64,000 nt of DNA from an uncultured bacterium (GCA_902762495.1 CACWOL010000001.1:5548-69547); one strand, 5' to 3'. Counted from the first letter of the stretch, positions 6,872-15,481 are shown. Made by a program: numbers and translations. Notes: generated by a model not told the origin, from the letters alone.

Positions 6872-7645
6872 ATGAACCAGCCTGTTTCCATCATCCTGCC
6901 GAACTACAAGACTCCGGAACTGACGCGCCTCTGCCTGCGTTCTCTCCGCAAATATACGCCGCACGACGCGATCCGCATCATCGCCGTCGACAACGCGTCC
7001 GGCGACGAATCGGCGGAATACCTGCGGTCGCTCGGCTGGATCCGGCTGATCGAACGCACCCCCGCGGACATCGCCGGCATGGCGCCCGCGCTGATGCACA
7101 CCACCGCCATGGACCTGGCGCTGAACGAGGTCGACACGCCGTTCGTCCTGTCGTTCCACACCGACACCATCGTGTACAGCACGGACTGGCTGGAATTCCT
7201 GCTCGGACGCATCAACCGGAGTGAAAAGATCGCGGGCGTAGGCAGCTGGAAACTCGAATTCGTGCCGCCGCTGAAACGATTCGGCAAGGGGATCGAGGAC
7301 GGTTTGAAACAGCTCCTCGGCAAAAAGAAACCGGAATACCGGTTTCTGCGGAGCCATTGCGCGCTGTATCGCACCGAGCTGCTGAAACGGCACACGCGCG
7401 GATTCGGCGACGGCGAATGCGCCGGCAGTTCTATCCACAGATGCCTGACCGCCGCCGGGTACGACATGGAGTTCATCCCGCCGGAAGTCCTCATCAAGTA
7501 CATGGACCACCTGAACCACGCCACGATGATCCTGAACCCGGCGATCGGCTCCCGCAAGACCGCCGCCCCGAAGGCGCGCCAGTCGCTCGAATCCCGTCTG
7601 GAACGCTACCGCGCCATCCTCGCCGATGACTCCCTCGACAAATAA
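6872..7645 (+). CDS. Glycosyltransferase family 2
   Basis: N-terminus VSIILPNYKTPELTRLCLRSL..IIAVDNASGDES is a typical GT2 (GT-A fold) DxD-type start. Confidence 0.8.
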   Translation: MNQPVSIILPNYKTPELTRLCLRSLRKYTPHDAIRIIAVDNASGDESAEYLRSLGWIRLIERTPADIAGMAPALMHTTAMDLALNEVDTPFVLSFHTDTIVYSTDWLEFLLGRINRSEKIAGVGSWKLEFVPPLKRFGKGIEDGLKQLLGKKKPEYRFLRSHCALYRTELLKRHTRGFGDGECAGSSIHRCLTAAGYDMEFIPPEVLIKYMDHLNHATMILNPAIGSRKTAAPKARQSLESRLERYRAILADDSLDK

Positions 7646-7780
7646 CGATGCGCGCAAAACAGACTGACGCGGAGACAGTTATGGATCTGGATGCTTTACG
7701 AAACGATTGCGCCCGTGCAGAAACGCCGCTATGCCCAGCTGGTGAAGGACGAACTATAACCTTTTCCATGTGAACAAACG

Positions 7781-8308
7781 ATGACAACAGACGAGAAAAC
7801 GGAAAAGACTTGGCGGCGGATCATCATTTGGGCATCCGTCCTGGCGTTCATCGTCGTGATTATAATCCCGCTCCCGTTCCTCATCGACGAGCCCGTCTGC
7901 GTCCAAACCTATCTCAATACCAGGACATTCGAATACGAGTCGTATGTCCGGGTCGGCCCCCTCGTGTTCGAACAGGACAGCGCATCCTTCTTTCAAGGCG
8001 ATCTCGAACCGTACCGGAACGCAGTCCGGCAGGAACGTCTCCCGGAATACTGGATCTGCATCTACATGCAATCCTACACCCTGCTGGGCAGCCCGATCTT
8101 CCACGAGGTCAGAGGTGGCAAATACCCGACGAAACTGCGGTTCTTCCTCATGGAGCATTATCAGGAGATGATGGACCCGGACTACAAGGAGACCGAGGAG
8201 GAATTCTCCGCCCGCTTCACCGATTACATCCTGTCCCTGAATGACGACGAATTTTTTAAACGCGTCCTGCTCCCCGCGGACACCGATCTCCGCGCCCGGT
8301 CCTTCTAA
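7781..8308 (+). CDS. Hypothetical membrane-anchored protein
   Basis: 175-aa ORF with one N-terminal hydrophobic helix (IIIWASVLAFIVVIIIPLPFLI). Codon usage is consistent with its neighbours. I recognise no family. Confidence 0.5.
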   Translation: MTTDEKTEKTWRRIIIWASVLAFIVVIIIPLPFLIDEPVCVQTYLNTRTFEYESYVRVGPLVFEQDSASFFQGDLEPYRNAVRQERLPEYWICIYMQSYTLLGSPIFHEVRGGKYPTKLRFFLMEHYQEMMDPDYKETEEEFSARFTDYILSLNDDEFFKRVLLPADTDLRARSF

Positions 8309-8396
8309 AAAAAAAGCAACACATTGTATATGATGAGATTGTGTAGAAAGTTTTGTATCTAAAGGAATTTTTTTAAAGAATTATTTCTTTTTCGAT

Positions 8397-8424
8397 TTGA
8401 CTTTTCAGTTAAGCGTGCTATAGT
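8397..8424 (+). promoter_or_regulatory. Sigma-70-like promoter of the XRE-ImmA gene
   Basis: TTGACT (8397-8402), 16-nt spacer, TATAGT (8419-8424) preceded by GTGC. GGAGG RBS at 8456-8460 and ATG at 8468. Confidence 0.6.
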
Positions 8425-8467
8425 ATTTTCGTGGAATGTTTTATCACCGTTAACGCGGAGGTACAGA

Positions 8468-9514
8468 ATGGATCAGAATCACTTTAACCCAGCATTGCTA
8501 AAACTCGCAAGAGAAGAGCGTGGTTTTTCCCAAAAGAAACTCGCTCAGGAGCTCTGTATTCAGCAGTCGTCTGTTTGCAAGTATGAAGCAGGTGTCTTGA
8601 TCCCTTCTGACGACACCATTAGGTCTATATCTAAACTATTTGGCTACCAAAGCACATTCTTTTTTCAAGACGATCTCCCCGTCTATTCCGGGTTAATATT
8701 TCATCGCAAACGTACATCTCTGAGTGCCAAGAAACGAATGAGTATTGAAGCTGAAGCACGACTTCGGGCAATCGATGTTCTGCATTTGTTTAAATGGAAA
8801 GGTATGAAGTCCAATATCATTCCACGGGAAAATAGAAAACCGGAAGAAATGGCTCAGGCCCTTCGCGAGCATTGGAACGTAAATGATGGTCCCATCGAGA
8901 ATCTGACAAAACTCCTCGAGGACAACAAAATCGTAATACTCTCCTTCAAATTTGACGCAGAGGAACTGGACGGTTTTGTTCTCAACGTTGATAACATCGT
9001 TTGTATCGCTATGAATAATGATGGGGGCTTTTCCCCGGATCGGCAGAGATTTACGATGTGCCATGAGTTGGCTCACGCTCTTTTGCATCAGAACGTGTTT
9101 CCCGATAAAACAATAGAAGGTGAAGCGGACAGATTCGCGGCAGAGTTCCTCGCCCCCCGAAAAGCAATCGAATCCGACTTGGTTTGGCCCATGACCTTTG
9201 AACAGCTTAAACAGCTTAAAGGCAAGTGGAAGATTTCTATGGCAAGTTTAATTTACAGAGCACATAAACTTGGAACAATTTCAGATGCAATCTATCGCCG
9301 AATCATGATGTATATGTCTTCTCATGGGTTTCGCAAACATGAACCGGAATGCGGACTTGTTCCTGAAACACCAACTTTGCTGAACAACATGATTCAAGAG
9401 TTTCTCGCCGAAACGCAGGATGCTTTATCCGAGTTAAAGCTGTCGGAATGGCGTTTCAATGAAAGATACAAACAATCAGGAGGGCTGTCAGAAATGTCAG
9501 TTGGAAAAGCATAA
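8468..9514 (+). CDS. XRE-family HTH fused to an ImmA/IrrE-type zinc metallopeptidase domain
   Basis: The N-terminus LLKLAREERGFSQKKLAQELCIQQSSVCKYEAG is a Cro/C1-type HTH. The central MCHELAHALLH (HExxH) plus EADRFAAEFLAPR is typical of ImmA/IrrE (COG2856-like). It lies in the AT-rich island. Confidence 0.85.
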   Translation: MDQNHFNPALLKLAREERGFSQKKLAQELCIQQSSVCKYEAGVLIPSDDTIRSISKLFGYQSTFFFQDDLPVYSGLIFHRKRTSLSAKKRMSIEAEARLRAIDVLHLFKWKGMKSNIIPRENRKPEEMAQALREHWNVNDGPIENLTKLLEDNKIVILSFKFDAEELDGFVLNVDNIVCIAMNNDGGFSPDRQRFTMCHELAHALLHQNVFPDKTIEGEADRFAAEFLAPRKAIESDLVWPMTFEQLKQLKGKWKISMASLIYRAHKLGTISDAIYRRIMMYMSSHGFRKHEPECGLVPETPTLLNNMIQEFLAETQDALSELKLSEWRFNERYKQSGGLSEMSVGKA

Positions 9515-9877
9515 AAAAGATAGCGAAATTCAAAAAAGAGAACCTCGCTATCCATAAAGAATGGGTGTGGACCCCAGTCTTTAAAGATAGCATATGAAAA
9601 CTGTTTTTTCAAGTTTTTTGGGTTCTTTTTCTTGAATTTCGCTTCAAAAACGGTCTGTTTTCGGAGTTTTTCTCCCAAAACACAGGTTCTCTTCGACTAC
9701 CAAAAGCACGAAGAGAGTATCGCAAGGGGAATCGCCCTCTGCATGTATGCCCCCAACATATAAGGATACTTTGGGCATACACGGACACATAAAAGAGGGC
9801 GAAACACCTTAATTCCGAACCTTGCGGATTCGTCCGCTGGATGGTAGAACATTCTCTACCAGAAAGAGATTTTTCTC

Positions 9878-10270
9878 ATGAATAATGAAAGATTTATTGT
9901 CCTCGAACACGTCAAGAAAGGCGACATCATCTTTGTTGAAGCCTGCTCACAATGTGCCTCAAAGGCCAAAATCACCCTAGAAGGCGTAAGCCCCACCGTT
10001 GAGCTTGTCAAAAGCACGAACAACTGCAACTTGACAAGACTCGAGGGCGGGTATTCCGCCGAAAAGACTGATGATGGTCCAGTTCAGCTGAAGATCTCCA
10101 TAGACAATGGCTCTAAGATGAAAGTCATCAAGAACGGAACCATTCTCTCCGATATCGAAGGCAAAGAAAAAGGAATACAGTATGTGTTTAACATTGAAGA
10201 TCACGAGAATCTCGACAATGACTTCAATGACTACTTTATTTCTGTCGTCACCTGGCACAAGAAAAACTAA
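9878..10270 (+). CDS. Hypothetical small protein (130 aa), family unknown
   Basis: ORF in the AT-rich island, followed directly by a strong hairpin terminator. The sequence is rich in beta-strand-like alternation and I recognise no motif. Confidence 0.5.
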   Translation: MNNERFIVLEHVKKGDIIFVEACSQCASKAKITLEGVSPTVELVKSTNNCNLTRLEGGYSAEKTDDGPVQLKISIDNGSKMKVIKNGTILSDIEGKEKGIQYVFNIEDHENLDNDFNDYFISVVTWHKKN

Positions 10271-10277
10271 ATGCAAC

Positions 10278-10313
10278 AGCCGGTGGTCCCGGGAGGAACC
10301 ACCGGCTTTTTTT
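10278..10313. terminator. Intrinsic terminator, probably bidirectional (convergent genes)
   Basis: Perfect 10-bp stem AGCCGGTGGT / ACCACCGGCT (10278-10287 and 10298-10307) followed by a T-run at 10307-10313. It lies between the stop at 10270 (+) and the stop at 10328 (-). Confidence 0.8.
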
Positions 10314-10327
10314 AAGGCTACTCGACC

Positions 10328-11029
10328 TCAGCCAAAGGCAAAGAGGTCTGACTCGGGAGATTCTTCCCCTTCACCATGTCCCTCGCCCGAGTGCGTATGA
10401 TTAGCGTATGTATGCCATGTGGGTTCATAACTGCTGTCAGCCTGATTTCCCCACGACACCCAATTCTCGCGCACCCCGCGGGCAAACATTTCCAAGAACG
10501 GCCCCGCACTGCATGCCTCAATGATCGGATAGATTTCATCGGGCTTGCGGGAATGCTCACGTTTCACGCTTCGCACCAAATTAACCTGGCTTCTTGCCGG
10601 AGGAAGTGTCCGGTAGCTGTCGCCTTTCACCCCAAACAAGAGGATTTCCGTGACATTGCGGAAATAGAACCCGACGCCCCGTCCATCCGGATAACCGTCC
10701 TTCCGGACTTTTTCCCAAATGATGTTCGATTTGTACTGGAAGCCCCAGGACCTCAGAACATCCAAGCCTTCGGGCAAAAGAGCGTTGGGAACCCAAAGAT
10801 ACAAATGACAGACAGAATCCGTCACGAAATCAACAGGAATTCTTTTGATGTCGTCCAAAGACATCGTAGAGTAACGGTTCAGGCGTTTATGTTCGGGCGC
10901 AACCTTTCCCGTACGGTTATTGAACTGCCAGGGAGGATCAGCCAACACAGTTCTGAACTTATGCCCCTGACAGGTGTTTAAGAAGCTCTGACAGGTGTTT
11001 TCAAAAGAATAATCGTTTTCCATCGGCAT
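10328..11029 (-). CDS. MT-A70-family N6-adenine DNA methyltransferase
   Basis: VLADPPWQF (catalytic DPPW), HLYLWVPNALLPEGL, WGFQY..IIWEK, EILLFGVKG, REHSRKPDE, LEMFARG..W..WGN. This is the typical MT-A70 motif order. Confidence 0.88.
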   Translation of the reverse strand: MPMENDYSFENTCQSFLNTCQGHKFRTVLADPPWQFNNRTGKVAPEHKRLNRYSTMSLDDIKRIPVDFVTDSVCHLYLWVPNALLPEGLDVLRSWGFQYKSNIIWEKVRKDGYPDGRGVGFYFRNVTEILLFGVKGDSYRTLPPARSQVNLVRSVKREHSRKPDEIYPIIEACSAGPFLEMFARGVRENWVSWGNQADSSYEPTWHTYANHTHSGEGHGEGEESPESDLFAFG

Positions 11030-11042
11030 AGTCGATCACCTC

Positions 11043-11693
11043 CTATTTCTGAATGCAGGCAGGCGTGATTCCGATCGCCAGAATCGGGCATCCCCCATGT
11101 CTGCGGGAATCCAATCGCGGAAGAAGCTTTCCCATCCAAGTTGTACTGGCTCCATACTTGGCTTTGACTCCCAATTCATCGAATATCTGATTCAAAGATT
11201 CCGCTCTCGTAATAATCACTCCTGCGCTGATAATGTCACATTCGTAATAGGTCCGCATTGCAAACAGGTCCCGGTCAAAAGTCTGGTCTTTACTGTTCCA
11301 CTCGAAGTCAACAGCAACACGGTTTTTCACGAAGTCGATATTATGACCGTCAATATAGTTTGAAATCGTTTTTTCATCAAACGGAATATCTGAGAAAGCA
11401 CCTTTTCTGCCCTTGCGAGGGTAGAACTTGATAATCAAATCTCCGGATATTCTGATCTCTTCCCAGCCTCGCGGCTCTAAAGAAACAGCCAGTTTCGGCG
11501 GAATTGAAGACTCGTTCCCTCCAGCTGTGGTAATGTCGGCAATCGTTATCTGAAAACTCTTCAGGGCTTGGCAGACCTCATCCCACTCAGCCGGGAATGA
11601 TTGAGACAAAATCTCGGCGGCATGATTGTAATTGAAGCACTCGTATTTTTCCAGGATCTCCGCCGGAATCCATTTTTCCAAGGTCTGCGCCAT
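11043..11693 (-). CDS. Putative type II restriction endonuclease (BglII/BamHI-like)
   Basis: 216-aa ORF 13 nt upstream of the methylase on the same strand. The segment IDFVKNRVAVDFEWNSKDQTFDRDL resembles the acidic catalytic core of BglII/BamHI-type enzymes (from memory). The assignment rests on context plus this motif. Confidence 0.6.
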   Translation of the reverse strand: MAQTLEKWIPAEILEKYECFNYNHAAEILSQSFPAEWDEVCQALKSFQITIADITTAGGNESSIPPKLAVSLEPRGWEEIRISGDLIIKFYPRKGRKGAFSDIPFDEKTISNYIDGHNIDFVKNRVAVDFEWNSKDQTFDRDLFAMRTYYECDIISAGVIITRAESLNQIFDELGVKAKYGASTTWMGKLLPRLDSRRHGGCPILAIGITPACIQK

Positions 11694-11775
11694 ATTTCCC
11701 CCAATCTTACGTTATTGATACAGTCAAAAAATAAAACCATGCTTTCGCATGATAATATGTACTTTCTTGAATCCA

Positions 11776-11813
11776 CCCGGGATGGATTTGAGGTCCATTC
11801 CGGGTAGTTTTTT
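11776..11813 (+). terminator. Orphan terminator-like hairpin with T-run on the plus strand
   Basis: Arms CCCGGGATGGA (11776-11786) and TCCATTCCGGG (11794-11804) with one mismatch and a 7-nt loop, then TAG + TTTTTT (11808-13). No plus-strand CDS ends nearby. Confidence 0.4.
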
Positions 11814-11822
11814 GCTCGCGCG

Positions 11823-11860
11823 GCGCAATCTGTCAGGTTCGAGTCCTGACAGAGTTGCGC
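11823..11860. other. Long hairpin whose apex mimics a tRNA T-arm (not a tRNA gene)
   Basis: GCGCAATCTGTCAGG-TTCGAGT-CCTGACAGAGTTGCGC, a stem of about 15 bp with one bulge. The apex TCAGG-TTCGAGT-CCTGA equals the canonical T-stem/loop. It lies 15 nt downstream of the hydA stop and at the GC-content transition. Confidence 0.5.
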
Positions 11861-11874
11861 TTTGTTACGCCGCC

Positions 11875-13617
11875 TCAGAATTTCTTTCGGGCGGTGTAGG
11901 AGGTGTGGAGGAGCTTGTGGGCCAAGTGGCTGCCGGGCTCGCCGAGGTATTCTTCGTAGAGCTTCTGGATGGACTTGTTCTGGTGGGACTTGCGGATCGG
12001 GTGATTCAGGTCGTCCTGATAGAGCGCTTCCATACGCTTGCGGATGATCTCGGTGTTACCGTGGTGGTAGGGCTGGCCGCCGCCGTCGATGCAGCCGCCG
12101 GGGCACGCCATGATCTCGATGGCGTGGTACTTGGCTTCGCCGGCTTTGATCTTCTCGAGGAGCTTGCGGGCGTTGCCGAGGCCGGAGCAGATCGCGGCTT
12201 TGAGCTTGATGCCGCCGACGTCGACTTCGGCTTCCTTGATGCCTTCGAGGCCGCGGACAGGCGTGTAGTCGATCTCCTGAACGTCCTTGCCGGAGAGGAT
12301 GTCGGCCGCGGTACGGAGCGCGGCTTCGAGCACGCCGCCGGACGTACCGAAGATGGTGGCCGCGCCGGTACCTTCTCCGAGCGGAGAATCGTATTCGGAA
12401 TCCTCGAGCTTGTCGAACTGGATGCCGGCTTCGTGGAACATCTCGGCGAGTTCACGGGTGGTGAGGACGATATCAACGTCGCGGACGCCGTCGCGGGTGA
12501 ACTCGGGACGGGCGGCCTCGTACTTCTTGGCGAGGCAGGGCATGACGGAGACGACGATGAGGTCTTCCGGCTTGATGCCGGTCTTCTCGCAGTAGTAGCT
12601 CTTGGCGATCGCGCCGAACATCTGCTGCGGGGACTTGGCCGTGGAGGGCATATAGGTAAGTTCGGGGAACTGGTGTTCGAGGAACTTGACCCAGCCGGGG
12701 CAGCAGCTGGTGAGGATCGGGAGATTCTCGTTCTTCTTGATGCGTTCGATCAGCTCGGTGCCCTCTTCCATGATGGTGAGGTCGGCGGAGAAGTTGGTGT
12801 CGAACACCTTGTCCGCGCCGAGCATCTTCAGGGCGGTGACCATCTTGCCGGTGCTGATGGAGCCGGGTTCCATGCCGAAGGCCTCGCCGATGGCGACACG
12901 GACGGCCGGAGCGGTCTGGAAGACGACGGTCTTGGACTTATCGTTGAGGGCACGCCAGACGTCGTACTTGTAGTTGATCTCGGTGAGAGCACCGACAGGG
13001 CAGGCCTGAACGCACTGGCCGCAGAAGACGCACTGGGTGTCGGCGAGCTTCTTGAGGCCAGCGGGAGCGACGACGGCGTTGAATCCGCGGCCGACGCCGG
13101 AGAGGACGCCGACGGTCTGGATGTTGTTGCAGGCGTTTTCGCAGCGGCGGCACATGATGCATTTGTCAAGGTCGCGGCGGATGGCGGCGCTGCTCTCGTC
13201 GAGCTCGTACGTGGACTGCTCGCCGCTGTACTGCAGGTTGTGGACGCCGAGCTCTTCGGCGATCTTCTGGAGTTCGCAGTTCAGGCTCTTCGGGCAGGTG
13301 AGGCAATCTTTCGGGTGGTCCGAAAGGAGCAGGTCGAGGATGGCGCGGCGCGCGTTGATGGCGCGGAGCGTGTTGGTGTGGACGACCATGCCTTCCATGA
13401 CGGGCGTGCAGCAGGCGGGGGCCAGGTTGGGGCGCTTTTCGACCTCGACGACGCAGATACGGCAGGAACCGCATCTGTGCTCGACGTGGAACGCATCCAT
13501 CTTGAAATGGCAGAGAGTCGGGATTTTGATATCGAGTTTTTCCGCGGCTTCGAGGATGGTGGAACCGGCCTCGACGGCTACGGGCTTGTTGTTGATGGTA
13601 AGATTGACTGTGCTCAT
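11875..13617 (-). CDS. hydA: [FeFe] hydrogenase catalytic subunit, HydABC (bifurcating) type
   Basis: Start chosen at ATG 13617 (MSTVNLTINNKPV). It has an N-terminal 2Fe-2S ferredoxin-like domain and several Cys clusters. All three H-cluster motifs are present: LTSCCPGWV, VMPCLAKKYEA, EIMACPGGCIDGGGQP. Confidence 0.92.
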   Translation of the reverse strand: MSTVNLTINNKPVAVEAGSTILEAAEKLDIKIPTLCHFKMDAFHVEHRCGSCRICVVEVEKRPNLAPACCTPVMEGMVVHTNTLRAINARRAILDLLLSDHPKDCLTCPKSLNCELQKIAEELGVHNLQYSGEQSTYELDESSAAIRRDLDKCIMCRRCENACNNIQTVGVLSGVGRGFNAVVAPAGLKKLADTQCVFCGQCVQACPVGALTEINYKYDVWRALNDKSKTVVFQTAPAVRVAIGEAFGMEPGSISTGKMVTALKMLGADKVFDTNFSADLTIMEEGTELIERIKKNENLPILTSCCPGWVKFLEHQFPELTYMPSTAKSPQQMFGAIAKSYYCEKTGIKPEDLIVVSVMPCLAKKYEAARPEFTRDGVRDVDIVLTTRELAEMFHEAGIQFDKLEDSEYDSPLGEGTGAATIFGTSGGVLEAALRTAADILSGKDVQEIDYTPVRGLEGIKEAEVDVGGIKLKAAICSGLGNARKLLEKIKAGEAKYHAIEIMACPGGCIDGGGQPYHHGNTEIIRKRMEALYQDDLNHPIRKSHQNKSIQKLYEEYLGEPGSHLAHKLLHTSYTARKKF

Positions 13618-13639
13618 AGTAGTGTAATGCTCCTCTCGG

Positions 13640-15481
13640 TCAGATCTTGGCGATGGCATGGAACTTGCAGGCGCCGAAGCACGCGCCGCACTTGATGCAC
13701 TTGGCCTGGTTGATGACATGTTTCATCTTCTTCTCGCCGGAAATCGCGCCGACCGGGCAGCGCTTGGCGCAGAGACCGCAACCGACGCACTTGTCGGTCA
13801 CGTTGAACTGGATGAGGTTGGCGCAGACGCCGGCGGGGCAGCGGTGGTCCTTCACGTGGGCGAGATATTCGTCTTCGAAGTTCGCGAGCGTGGAGAGAAC
13901 CGGGTTCGGGGCGGTCTGGCCGAGGCCGCAGAGGGCGGTGTCCTTGATGGTGGCGGAGAGCGTTTTGAGCTTCTCGAGGATTTCCATGTTGCCTTCGCCG
14001 GAGGTGATCTTGTTCAGGAGCTCGAGCATGCGGCGGTTGCCGACGCGGCACGGGGTGCACTTGCCGCAGGATTCGTCGGCGGTGAAGTCGAGGAAGAACT
14101 TGGCGATGTTGACCATGCAGTCGTCCTCGTCCATGACGATCATGCCGCCGGATCCCATCATGGAACCGATGGATTTGAGGGCTTCGTAGTCGATTTGGAG
14201 ATCAAGGTTTTTCTTGGTGATGCAGCCGCCGGACGGACCGCCGGTCTGCACGGCCTTGAATTCGCGGCCGTCCTTGATGCCGCCGCCGATCTCGTAGATG
14301 ATCTGACGGAGCGTCATGCCCATCGGGACTTCGGCGAGGCCGACCTTGGAGATCTTGCCGGCGAGGGCGAAGACCTTCGTGCCGGGGGAACCGGCGGTGC
14401 CAAGGCCCTTGAACCAGTCGGCGCCCTTGCGGATGATGGCCGCGATGCAGGCGTAGGTCTCGACGTTGTTGACGACGGTCGGGCGCTTCCAGAGGCCCTG
14501 GATGGCCGGGAACGGGGGCTTGAACGTGGGTTCGCCGCGCTGGCCTTCGATGGAGTGGATGAGGGCGGTTTCCTCGCCGCAGACGAACGCGCCCGCGCCG
14601 AACTTGATCTCAAGTTTGAAATCGAAGCCGCTGCCGAAGATGTTCTTGCCGAGGAAGCCCTTTTCCTCGGCCTGGGCGATGGCGTTTTCGAGGCGCTTCA
14701 CCGCGAGCGGGTATTCCGCGCGGATGTAGATGACGCCGTTGTGCGCGCCGATCGCGTAGCCGCCGATTGCCATAGCTTCGAGGACGGCGTTCGGGTCGCC
14801 TTCGAGCACGGCACGGTCCATGAATGCGCCCGGGTCGCCTTCGTCGGCGTTGCAGATGATAAACTTCTCGCCTTCGGGCTGGGCGGCCGCGAAGGACCAT
14901 TTCTTGCCGGTGGGGAAGCCCGCGCCGCCGCGGCCGCGGAGGTTGGAGGCGGAGATCACGTCGATGACTTCCTGGGGCTTCATGGAGGTGACGACCTTCG
15001 CGAGGGCGGAATAGCCGCCTTCGGCGACGTACTGATCAATGTCTTCGGGATTGATGCGGCCGGTGTTGCGGAGGACGATGCGCGCCTGGAGTTCGCCTTC
15101 GGCGGGGGATTCGTCTTCGGGATAGTACCAGCAGCGGTCGATGGTGTGGGTGCCGGTGGCCGGAGCTTCGAGGCCGGCCTGCATGATGGCGGGGATCTGG
15201 TGCGGGGTCACGTCGCCGTAGATGATGCGCTTGCCCTTGTCGTCGGTGAGCATGATGACGGGCTCGGCGTAGCAGAGGCCCATGCAGCCGACTTCGATGA
15301 CGTCGAACGCGCCGTCGAGCTTGTGCTCGGCGATGTAGTCGTTGATGGCCTTCAGGACTTCGCCGGTACCGGCGGCGATGCCGCACGTTCCCATGGAAAC
15401 GAGCAGTTTGACGGGCGCGTGCTTGCGCGCCTTGAGGGCGGCCGCGTATTCAGCGAGCGCCGCAGGAGAGTCAATTCTCAT
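13640..15481 (-). CDS. hydB: NuoF-like flavoprotein subunit of hydrogenase (HydB)
   Basis: N-terminal thioredoxin-like 2Fe-2S region, LRGRGGAGFPTGKKWSF (FMN/NADH site), SLBB/4Fe-4S region and a C-terminal 2x[4Fe-4S] (CVGCGLCAKRCP, CIKCGACFGACK). Confidence 0.92.
   Translation of the reverse strand: MRIDSPAALAEYAAALKARKHAPVKLLVSMGTCGIAAGTGEVLKAINDYIAEHKLDGAFDVIEVGCMGLCYAEPVIMLTDDKGKRIIYGDVTPHQIPAIMQAGLEAPATGTHTIDRCWYYPEDESPAEGELQARIVLRNTGRINPEDIDQYVAEGGYSALAKVVTSMKPQEVIDVISASNLRGRGGAGFPTGKKWSFAAAQPEGEKFIICNADEGDPGAFMDRAVLEGDPNAVLEAMAIGGYAIGAHNGVIYIRAEYPLAVKRLENAIAQAEEKGFLGKNIFGSGFDFKLEIKFGAGAFVCGEETALIHSIEGQRGEPTFKPPFPAIQGLWKRPTVVNNVETYACIAAIIRKGADWFKGLGTAGSPGTKVFALAGKISKVGLAEVPMGMTLRQIIYEIGGGIKDGREFKAVQTGGPSGGCITKKNLDLQIDYEALKSIGSMMGSGGMIVMDEDDCMVNIAKFFLDFTADESCGKCTPCRVGNRRMLELLNKITSGEGNMEILEKLKTLSATIKDTALCGLGQTAPNPVLSTLANFEDEYLAHVKDHRCPAGVCANLIQFNVTDKCVGCGLCAKRCPVGAISGEKKMKHVINQAKCIKCGACFGACKFHAIAKI

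Follow-up and report, generated by a model that had tools for sequence, protein, structure and literature searches.

Switches built from an XRE-type helix-turn-helix (HTH) domain and an M78 (ImmA/IrrE) metallopeptidase, such as ImmR/ImmA, DdrO/IrrE, CapH/CapP, and RmrA, control the induction of mobile elements, regulons for DNA damage, and a number of defence systems; the catalogue of their cargos is still growing. In the accessible part of Lau et al. (2022, 10.1101/2022.04.27.489752), CapP, once activated by single-stranded DNA (ssDNA) or DNA damage, is reported to cleave the CapH repressor; 15 systems encode CapH-CapP fusions, CapH/CapP-like pairs are found beside DUF2188 operons, and the CapH/CapP genes lie upstream of, and divergent from, the operon that they regulate. 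RmrA, as presented in the accessible parts of Millman et al. (2022) and Ernits et al. (2023, PMC10440598), is the antitoxin of RosmerTA and combines an HTH with an ImmA-type protease, with very diverse toxins and a variable gene order. Here, we describe a locus in which a regulator of this kind, fused into a single protein, precedes a 130-amino-acid (aa) protein with the predicted fold of PA-IIL/LecB-type lectins. Both genes belong to a low-GC island, which also carries a restriction-modification (R-M) pair, in a 64,000-nucleotide (nt) stretch of DNA from an uncultured bacterium (GCA_902762495.1 CACWOL010000001.1:5548-69547; hereafter, the window).

In our view, the chances are about even (probability roughly 0.5) that the island represents composite defence-type cargo in a recurrent insertion hotspot, with two functionally separate modules. 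We give the same odds to a functional pairing within the first of these modules, that is, a lectin-fold cargo, optionally together with a DUF2188 protein, under a CapH/CapP- or RosmerTA-like switch. As far as our literature search went, the pairing of a stress-switch regulator with a lectin-fold protein has not been described before: no paper was found that ties PA-IIL-type lectins to such modules, Burroughs & Aravind 2020 being outside the coverage of the search. The host and its relatives are rumen Lentisphaerae, and all genomes compared are metagenome-assembled genomes. The window belongs to genome G000, and homologous islands are present in G044 (locus L001) and in G037 (locus L002; genome 69% complete).

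The regulator, the spacer, and the lectin-fold protein

The regulator-lectin part of the island comprises the following features:

8397..8424, plus strand: sigma-70-like promoter of the regulator gene, TTGACT-16-TATAGT with an upstream TG (10/12 matches)
8468..9514, plus strand: fusion of an XRE HTH and an M78 (ImmA/IrrE) metallopeptidase, 348 aa, with the motif HELAH (HTH_3, 1e-10; Peptidase_M78, 8.8e-16)
9519..9645, no strand assigned: conserved hairpin of ~125 nt, with arms GATAGCGAAA / TTTCGC(TATC), right after the regulator stop codon; candidate operator, attenuator, or terminator
9646..9877, no strand assigned: non-conserved part of the spacer; in L002 and in G233, a genome from another family of the order, a DUF2188 gene fills this slot
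9878..10270, plus strand: 130-aa PA-IIL/LecB-fold lectin-like protein, putative cargo or effector (AF2, Foldseek, and VIA-align)
10278..10307, no strand assigned: GC-rich hairpin where the lectin and methyltransferase genes converge, likely a bidirectional terminator (13 pairs, 9 of them G-C; T-runs on both sides)

Judged by its sequence, the regulator is a member of the RmrA family, and by its modelled fold it is CapH-like in its HTH part and CapP/IrrE-like in its peptidase part. PADLOC profiles, which we applied without the system-level rules of PADLOC, matched the fusion with 14 RmrA models (best PDLC03949, 2e-62, profile positions 2-312 of 363), as well as with capP (2.4e-17, positions 4-157 of 242) and capH (9.6e-07). 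The NCBIfam model of the spr1629 repressor/antitoxin was matched at 4e-30, which is under the cutoff of that model. In Foldseek searches with the AF2 model (predicted local distance difference test, pLDDT, 89.8), the predicted peptidase domain resembled CapP (7t5t, E 3.4e-04), IrrE (3dti/3dte), and ssDNA-bound PprI (8sln), and the predicted HTH domain resembled CapH-N (7t5u) and ImmR (7t8i), with target-normalised template modelling scores (TMt) of 0.82 and 0.84, respectively. The HExxH residues H199, E200, and H203 were invariant or nearly so among 31 sequences, and the ratio of non-synonymous to synonymous divergence (dN/dS) of the gene was 0.13-0.16. The promoter, described as textbook in an annotation made from the sequence alone (hereafter, the initial annotation), indeed scored 10/12 with its upstream TG; by eye, the regulators of L002 and G233 are likewise preceded by an extended -10 element of the TGCTATA type.

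The 130-aa protein had been assigned to no recognisable family. This still holds at the level of Pfam thresholds, but by structure the protein has a PA-IIL-type lectin fold. No match to PF07472 was obtained at E<=1 in 17 members with the current Pfam, 12 of the 17 giving weak DUF4114 matches, and PADLOC families, RmrT included, gave no match at E<=0.01 to this protein or to the G233 lectin. PF07472 appeared solely as a lead, in precomputed tags on P0008 and P0015 and in neighbour clusters of the ESM Atlas, 32-49% of whose members belong to that family. Structure prediction, which the initial annotation had proposed for this protein, returned a confident model (pLDDT 91.2) with nine strands. 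Foldseek placed thrombocorticin first for this model (E 2.5e-06, template modelling score 0.69), followed by LecB, CV-IIL, RS-IIL, and BclA. With VIA-align, the modelled fold likewise appeared closest to thrombocorticin (Z 14.0, root-mean-square deviation 2.5, 121 residues aligned), then to LecB (Z 10.8-11.4), with the first unrelated fold at 6.7.

A weak alignment to LecB (E 0.38) set EDSTDNDFND of the family on EDSTDNDYND of LecB. The corresponding acidic residues E107, D108, D113, D115, N117, and D118 were nearly invariant in an alignment of 42 sequences, and we take this E-D...D-x-D-x-N-D loop to be the Ca2+-binding loop of PA-IIL lectins. In these lectins, the carboxylate of the C-terminal Gly completes the Ca2+ site of the neighbouring subunit. 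Members of the window clade carry a two-residue insertion in the acidic loop, EDHENLDNDFND, and end in ...WHKKN, not in Gly; most of the distant members of the family do end in Gly. No signal peptide was evident by eye. The case considered in the initial annotation, that this open reading frame (ORF) might lack homologs, did not apply: 17 clusters of close homologs were found (70-100% identity), a profile search retrieved 59 representative clusters at E<=1e-3, mostly of 125-134 aa, and dN/dS was 0.07-0.15. No relatives of the lectin were found on phages, plasmids, or viral contigs. A match of 42% identity over 26 residues was observed at L003.

The two genes are separated by a structured spacer of 363 nt, in agreement with the ~360 nt of hairpin-rich non-coding DNA noted initially. 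The hairpin at 9519-9645, which opens this spacer, had folding z-scores of -6.6 (plus strand) and -8.7 (minus strand), formed 48 pairs (4 of them compensatory) among 3 sequences, and was 85-89% conserved in L001 and L002, versus ~75% for the surrounding genes. It is present as a single copy in the genome, and the possibility of a miniature inverted-repeat transposable element was therefore rejected. The spacer of G233 opens with a palindrome, AATAGCGAAA...TTTCGCTATT, resembling GATAGCGAAA...CGCTATC of the window, although this similarity is weak (blastn E 0.044). A DUF2188 pseudogene in the spacer of the window or of L001 was considered and rejected (best E 0.28-0.57). On the minus strand, a U-run follows the hairpin, which gives it a terminator-like or small-RNA-like appearance, and a promoter-like site is found at 9612-9584. 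The plus strand of the spacer contains a 43-aa TTG-initiated ORF (9632-9763), with a loosely similar frame in L001, which is not conserved in L002. Downstream of the 130-aa gene, the strong terminator reported initially corresponds to the 13-bp terminator-like hairpin at 10278-10307.

Recurrence of the pair and history of the island

In surveys with hidden Markov models, the lectin family was detected in 3 of the 401 phylum genomes, 4 of the 251 order genomes, and 5 of the 351 class genomes sampled. For the closer tier of the family, three independent contexts were examined: the island of the genus, G233, and G606. In L002, a DUF2188 gene (Pfam 2e-20) lies 8 nt upstream of the lectin gene, and its product matches the PADLOC candidate PDC-S16 over its full length (4.6e-27); our literature search found no paper under PDC-S16. 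G233 carries the same cassette at another locus, next to tRNA-Met/Gly/Gly, and without R-M genes. There, a 121-aa XRE protein (HTH_31, 2.2e-10) is followed after 2 nt by a 179-aa M78 protein (8.1e-14), a spacer of ~210 nt, a DUF2188 gene (1.3e-17; 65% identical to that of L002), and, after ~16 nt, a lectin gene whose product is 60% identical to that of the window. The G233 M78 protein shares only 25% identity with the peptidase domain of the window regulator; the same functional type of regulator thus seems to have been kept beside a better-conserved cargo. The absence of R-M genes from the G233 cassette supports a functional link between regulator and lectin and argues against control of the R-M genes by the regulator.

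The third context, G606, belongs to another order. Its lectin is 41% identical to that of the window, and the lectin gene follows a complete HsdR-HsdM-HsdS operon at a distance of 277 nt, in a patch of 33-39% GC, a low-GC setting after a type I R-M operon that supports a defence-type role. At this locus (L114 432-6404), we also observed an AT-rich region with a TGTCACATGTGACA palindrome upstream of the lectin-like gene, and a Fic-like C-terminal fragment downstream of it, on the opposite strand.

A metagenome scan with a 12-sequence lectin alignment recovered 102 relatives, all of the distant tier, of which 80 loci were kept (L018-L097). These were dereplicated to 27 clusters at 80% identity, and for each representative the neighbouring ORFs, at most two per side of the lectin gene, were considered, for a total of 92. 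A DUF6765 gene was located immediately downstream of the lectin in 7 of the 27 clusters, and fimbrillin-like and/or BspA-type leucine-rich repeat (LRR) genes flanked it in four others; the neighbours also included glycosyltransferases, a jacalin lectin, and a DUF4114 protein. In about 10 distant clusters, an unannotated ORF of 229-257 aa abutted the lectin gene upstream on the same strand, and several of these clusters were part of arrays of fimbrillin (Mfa-like) and BspA-LRR genes.

The three islands (G000, G044, and G037) were compared gene by gene and with a 150-nt sliding window, which exposed a sharp break in identity near 10436. On its right side, the block 10436-11785 was 94-100% identical at the nucleotide level across the three species, with the endonuclease gene at 99.5-99.8% (synonymous divergence, dS, 0-0.007); it was thus tighter than the adjacent core gene hydA (94-98%, dS 0.09-0.15). 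On its left side, identity across the block 8436-10435 was 45-90%. Within this block, the regulator gene was 75-86% identical (dS 0.6-1.1; 72-86% at the amino-acid level) and the lectin gene 71-77% identical (dS >1.1), with parallel pairwise divergence of the two genes and dN/dS values of 0.07-0.16 for both. The break is located inside the 3' end of the methyltransferase gene, the window being only 71-73% identical to the other two loci over 10293-10435.

Since the R-M block differs so little (endonuclease dS ~0) while the core differs by 2-6%, we infer that it was recently transferred between species or homogenised by gene conversion. The regulator-lectin block, judged from the same alignments, looks like a set of old, recombining alleles under purifying selection. 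The suggestion in the initial annotation that the regulator and the small protein could form a module of their own thus gains support, both from the G233 cassette and from the unequal divergence of the two modules.

The insertion site and the R-M genes

The remaining features of the island and of its flanks are as follows:

7781..8308, plus strand: 175-aa predicted membrane protein, left flank; its last codons are changed by the insertion
8303..11770, no strand assigned: low-GC accessory island, ~3.47 kb (GC profile; empty sites in G048 and G045; single copy in the genome)
10328..11029, minus strand: MT-A70-family DNA methyltransferase with a DPPW motif, 233 aa (Pfam 5.7e-31; PADLOC MTase_II 1.5e-87)
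11043..11693, minus strand: BglII/BstYI-family type II restriction endonuclease, 216 aa (Pfam Endonuc-BglII 2.1e-44, positions 1-163/163)
11775..11805, plus strand: displaced intrinsic terminator of the 175-aa gene, which it immediately follows in empty sites; marks where the insertion site ends on the right
11875..13719, minus strand: [FeFe]-hydrogenase HydA, core gene, right flank (Pfam)

The drop in base composition was evident in 400-nt windows as a trough with a GC fraction of 0.40-0.53 across 8200-11799, versus 0.58-0.68 in the flanks. ORF calls and Pfam bore out the placement of the four genes. No mobility genes were found in the island, in line with the initial annotation, and no convincing direct repeats flanked it; no tRNA gene was called in the window by ARAGORN, and no Rfam family matched at E<=1 within 7500-12500. 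The hairpin at 11815-11860 was considered as the 3' fragment of a tRNA and hence as an att site, and this was rejected, as ARAGORN called no tRNA in the window and the hairpin is also present at empty sites. Of the two flanks, both described as core-like, hydA is a core gene, but the 175-aa gene is present in only 7 of the 16 genus genomes.

Comparison with sister genomes gave the limits of the insertion. In the empty sites of G048 and G045, the 175-aa gene is separated by ~47-50 nt from the hairpin that lies at 11775-11805 in the window, which places the insert at ~8303-11770 and therefore between the gene and its own terminator. The right junction was identical in all three islands; the left one differed, the 175-aa gene being truncated in L001 and absent from L002. 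The four-gene island was found in 3 of the 16 genus genomes (G000, G044, and G037) and in none of the 44 genomes from the other genera of the family; it is neither shared by all relatives nor of native composition. In the core region 11900-14300, nucleotide identity to G000 was 98.0% for G045 (empty), 97.7% for G044 (island), 96.5% for G046, 96.4% for G048 (empty), and 94.7% for G037 (island), and therefore carriage of the island does not track relatedness at this locus.

G046 and G043 carry other inserts at the same site. In G046 (L015 6875-7679), we found a 0.75-kb HigB/HigA pair (Pfam HigB-like toxin, 2.7e-15; HTH_3), bracketed by two copies of the terminator hairpin of the 175-aa gene (28 nt, 96% identical), which hints that the hairpin itself is a target of recombination or insertion. 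The 2.4-kb low-GC insert of G043 (L017 277-2675) encodes a 394-aa protein with zinc-ribbon, transmembrane, and Sel1-repeat regions, and a 360-aa FRG-domain protein that matches the PADLOC candidate PDC-S15 (2.6e-33). With its empty sites, its HigBA pair, and its FRG/PDC-S15 insert, the site supports the initial description of a defence island. The locus is a compact natural defence hotspot in uncultured rumen Lentisphaerae, with four alternative states at one intergenic site. In the right flank, the 614-aa hydA ORF has an Arg/Ser/Ala-rich start of ~34 residues without counterpart in the L002 ORF (593 aa, MSTVNLTIN), and its true start is probably an internal ATG.

The R-M genes are arranged in the order R then M, with 13 nt from the endonuclease stop codon to the methyltransferase start codon. 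The methyltransferase aligned with the MT-A70 protein 7f4r of the PDB (2.5e-21), including the DPPW motif. For the endonuclease, at least 7,897 related proteins were retrieved at E<=1e-10, those listed being 67-90% identical and some bearing the NCBI name 'BglII/BstYI family type II restriction endonuclease'; no PADLOC endonuclease model and no PDB sequence was matched. AGATCT was depleted in the G000 genome (observed/expected ratio 0.48; GATC, 1.02). Because AGATCT ranked only 9th of 64 hexamer palindromes, this depletion does not allow the recognition site to be deduced; many hexamer palindromes had ratios of 0.3-0.5, which indicates a general avoidance of palindromes rather than one specific to this system. 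Across the whole G000 genome, CTAG was strongly depleted (0.16) and GGCC moderately so (0.67). No C-protein gene was found in the island. From these comparisons of sequence, the pair is an ordinary type II R-M system, evolutionarily independent of the remainder of the island. The R-M block seems to have passed from one species to another at a later time than the divergence of the core genes.

Explanations of the regulator-lectin pair and comparison with described systems

The regulatory link, the trigger, and the action of the effector can be inferred as follows. The XRE-M78 fusion would govern the PA-IIL-fold protein encoded downstream, which relatives pair with DUF2188. Its HTH domain would keep this cargo silent or neutralised until a signal of infection or DNA damage activated the metallopeptidase; the activated peptidase would cleave the HTH part, and the lectin-fold protein, then made or released, would act on its target by binding of a Ca2+/carbohydrate type. 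Transcriptional control is favoured over direct neutralisation, because of the long structured spacer and of the split regulator in G233. In a narrower version of this scheme, which we hold to be unlikely, the protein would be a cytoplasmic anti-phage effector or sensor, switched on by the XRE-M78 protease and relying on Ca2+/carbohydrate recognition; conceivable targets would be, for example, glycosylated phage DNA or proteins, or envelope precursors. In this version, the protein would form a new effector class of CapH/CapP- or RosmerTA-like systems, with DUF2188 (PDC-S16) as a frequent companion.

Several points weigh against a switch with a lectin-fold cargo. We know of no toxic or antiviral activity of the lectin fold in bacteria. 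XRE/M78 and the lectin occur together in only two independent contexts, G233 and the island of the genus; as their M78 parts share just 25% identity, these regulators are perhaps not orthologs. The co-occurrence of XRE-ImmA and 130-aa homologs, raised in the initial annotation, was thus seen in the G233 cassette but not beyond: no XRE, M78, or DUF2188 was found in the 7.3 kb available at G606, no XRE/M78 domain at E<=1e-4 among the 92 neighbour ORFs of the 27 distant clusters, and no tblastn match to the window regulator, methyltransferase, or endonuclease, or to the L002 DUF2188 protein, in the 80 distant-tier loci. The DUF6765, fimbrillin-like, BspA-LRR, and glycosyltransferase neighbours of the distant lectins rather suggest a cell-surface or glycan role. 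Within the locus, no remnant of DUF2188 was found in the window (best E 0.28) or in L001, and no separate lectin promoter was called in the 363-nt spacer. Residues 244-334 of the regulator are all helical in the model, so that the C-terminal GAF domain of CapP/IrrE is missing. RmrA-like genes, present in 13 of the 401 phylum genomes sampled, have partners that overlap them or lie within ~60 nt, unlike the lectin gene. Finally, regulator and lectin are encoded on one strand in the window, L001, L002, and G233, whereas the pair described in the accessible part of Lau et al. (2022) is divergent from its operon.

Some of these points would also fit with two genes that have no functional link: the XRE-M78 protein would be an orphan regulator or a leftover of a system since lost, and the lectin an independent cargo that shares only the island with it, such as a factor for adhesion or carbohydrate binding. 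The surface and glycan contexts of the distant lectins, where XRE/M78 domains are missing from all 92 neighbour ORFs, the long spacer with its hairpin that is terminator-like on the minus strand, the G606 lectin without a regulator, and the loss of DUF2188 from the window copy are all consistent with such an arrangement. However, the order XRE, M78, DUF2188, lectin recurs in G233 at another locus with a regulator that is only 25% identical, which looks like retention of a functional type and not like hitch-hiking; moreover, both genes are under purifying selection despite their deep divergence, and the lectin has no signal peptide by eye. We therefore regard independence of the two genes as rather unlikely. 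A RosmerTA-type toxin-antitoxin system, in which the lectin would be a new RmrT toxin, bound by the RmrA-like fusion, freed on phage infection, and arresting the cell, would account for the near-full-length match to 14 PADLOC RmrA models (best 2e-62), for the spr1629 repressor/antitoxin match (4e-30, under cutoff), and for the parallel divergence of two genes on the same strand; according to the accessible parts of PMC10440598 and Millman et al. (2022), RmrT partners are very diverse and often of no known family, and the gene order varies. Yet no PADLOC model, not even RmrT, matches the lectin, and the 363-nt spacer, or the DUF2188 gene in between in L002, contrasts with the tight coupling of other RmrA-like genes. 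The wider lectin family has no antitoxin-like neighbours, which is unexpected for a toxin, and no XRE/M78 accompanies the G606 lectin in the 7.3 kb available; a toxin of this type thus seems quite improbable. At the phylum loci with RmrA-like genes (L100-L108), some partners appeared PemK/MazF-like by eye, several matched no family, and PIN-like partners of 164-166 aa matched PADLOC PDC-S70 (1.8e-11).

The initial annotation had also proposed that the fusion controls the R-M pair in place of a C-protein, in which case it would delay or tune expression of the endonuclease. The island does lack a C-protein gene, the HTH superposes on C.BclI, C.Kpn2I, and C.AhdI (as any XRE HTH does), and the G233 HTH gives weak PADLOC 'Control_protein' matches (4.8e-05). 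This proposal fared poorly against the rest of the evidence, and we consider it highly improbable: the cassette lacks R-M genes in G233, the R-M block is 94-100% identical while the regulator has diverged by ~25% (72-86% aa identity), and position 9520 is the one place in the window with the exact half-site ATAGCGAAA. The regulator gene is neither upstream of R nor divergent from it, but lies ~2.2 kb from the R promoter, beyond two convergent transcription units. A complex prediction of the XRE-M78 fusion with the lectin, run without controls, returned a score of 0.00 and a mark of 0.32, and was used neither for nor against any of these explanations.

A switch with a lectin-fold cargo, if true, would add a carbohydrate-recognition protein to the cargos of XRE-M78 switches. 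It would also give a testable role to the widespread, unstudied stand-alone PA-IIL-like proteins of ~130 aa (59 representative clusters). The R-M pair itself is ordinary. Like the published BglII/BstYI systems, it has a full-length Endonuc-BglII match, an adjacent methyltransferase, and the R-then-M order, and it belongs to a very widespread family; it differs in that its methyltransferase is of the MT-A70 family and is not accompanied by a C-protein, BglII being partnered by an N4-cytosine methyltransferase and a C-protein.

Among the described switches, CapH/CapP, as well as ImmR/ImmA and DdrO/IrrE, share with the window regulator the combination of an XRE HTH and an M78 Zn-peptidase, of which fused forms exist according to the part of Lau et al. 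(2022) cited above. The folds match CapP, IrrE, PprI, and CapH-N, and DUF2188 is associated in L002 and G233. The window differs from CapH/CapP in that its regulator has neither a GAF domain nor a DUF2188 companion, and in its lectin-fold cargo, of which the accessible part of Lau et al. (2022) makes no mention. With RosmerTA, the fusion shares a strong, near-full-length RmrA match, and RmrA partners are diverse in the accessible descriptions; the differences lie in a candidate partner that is no known RmrT and whose family lives without RmrA, and in a 363-nt spacer in place of a tight operon. As for the PA-IIL lectins (LecB of P. aeruginosa, RS-IIL, CV-IIL, BclA/BC2L, and thrombocorticin), the 130-aa protein shares with them a predicted nine-stranded beta-sandwich of ~115-130 aa (Z 9-14), the acidic E-D...D-x-D-x-N-D loop, and the lack of a signal peptide. 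This putative sugar-binding protein departs from them in sequence (10-19% identity), in the loop insertion and the KKN end that replaces Gly in the window clade, and in its context, a defence-type island.

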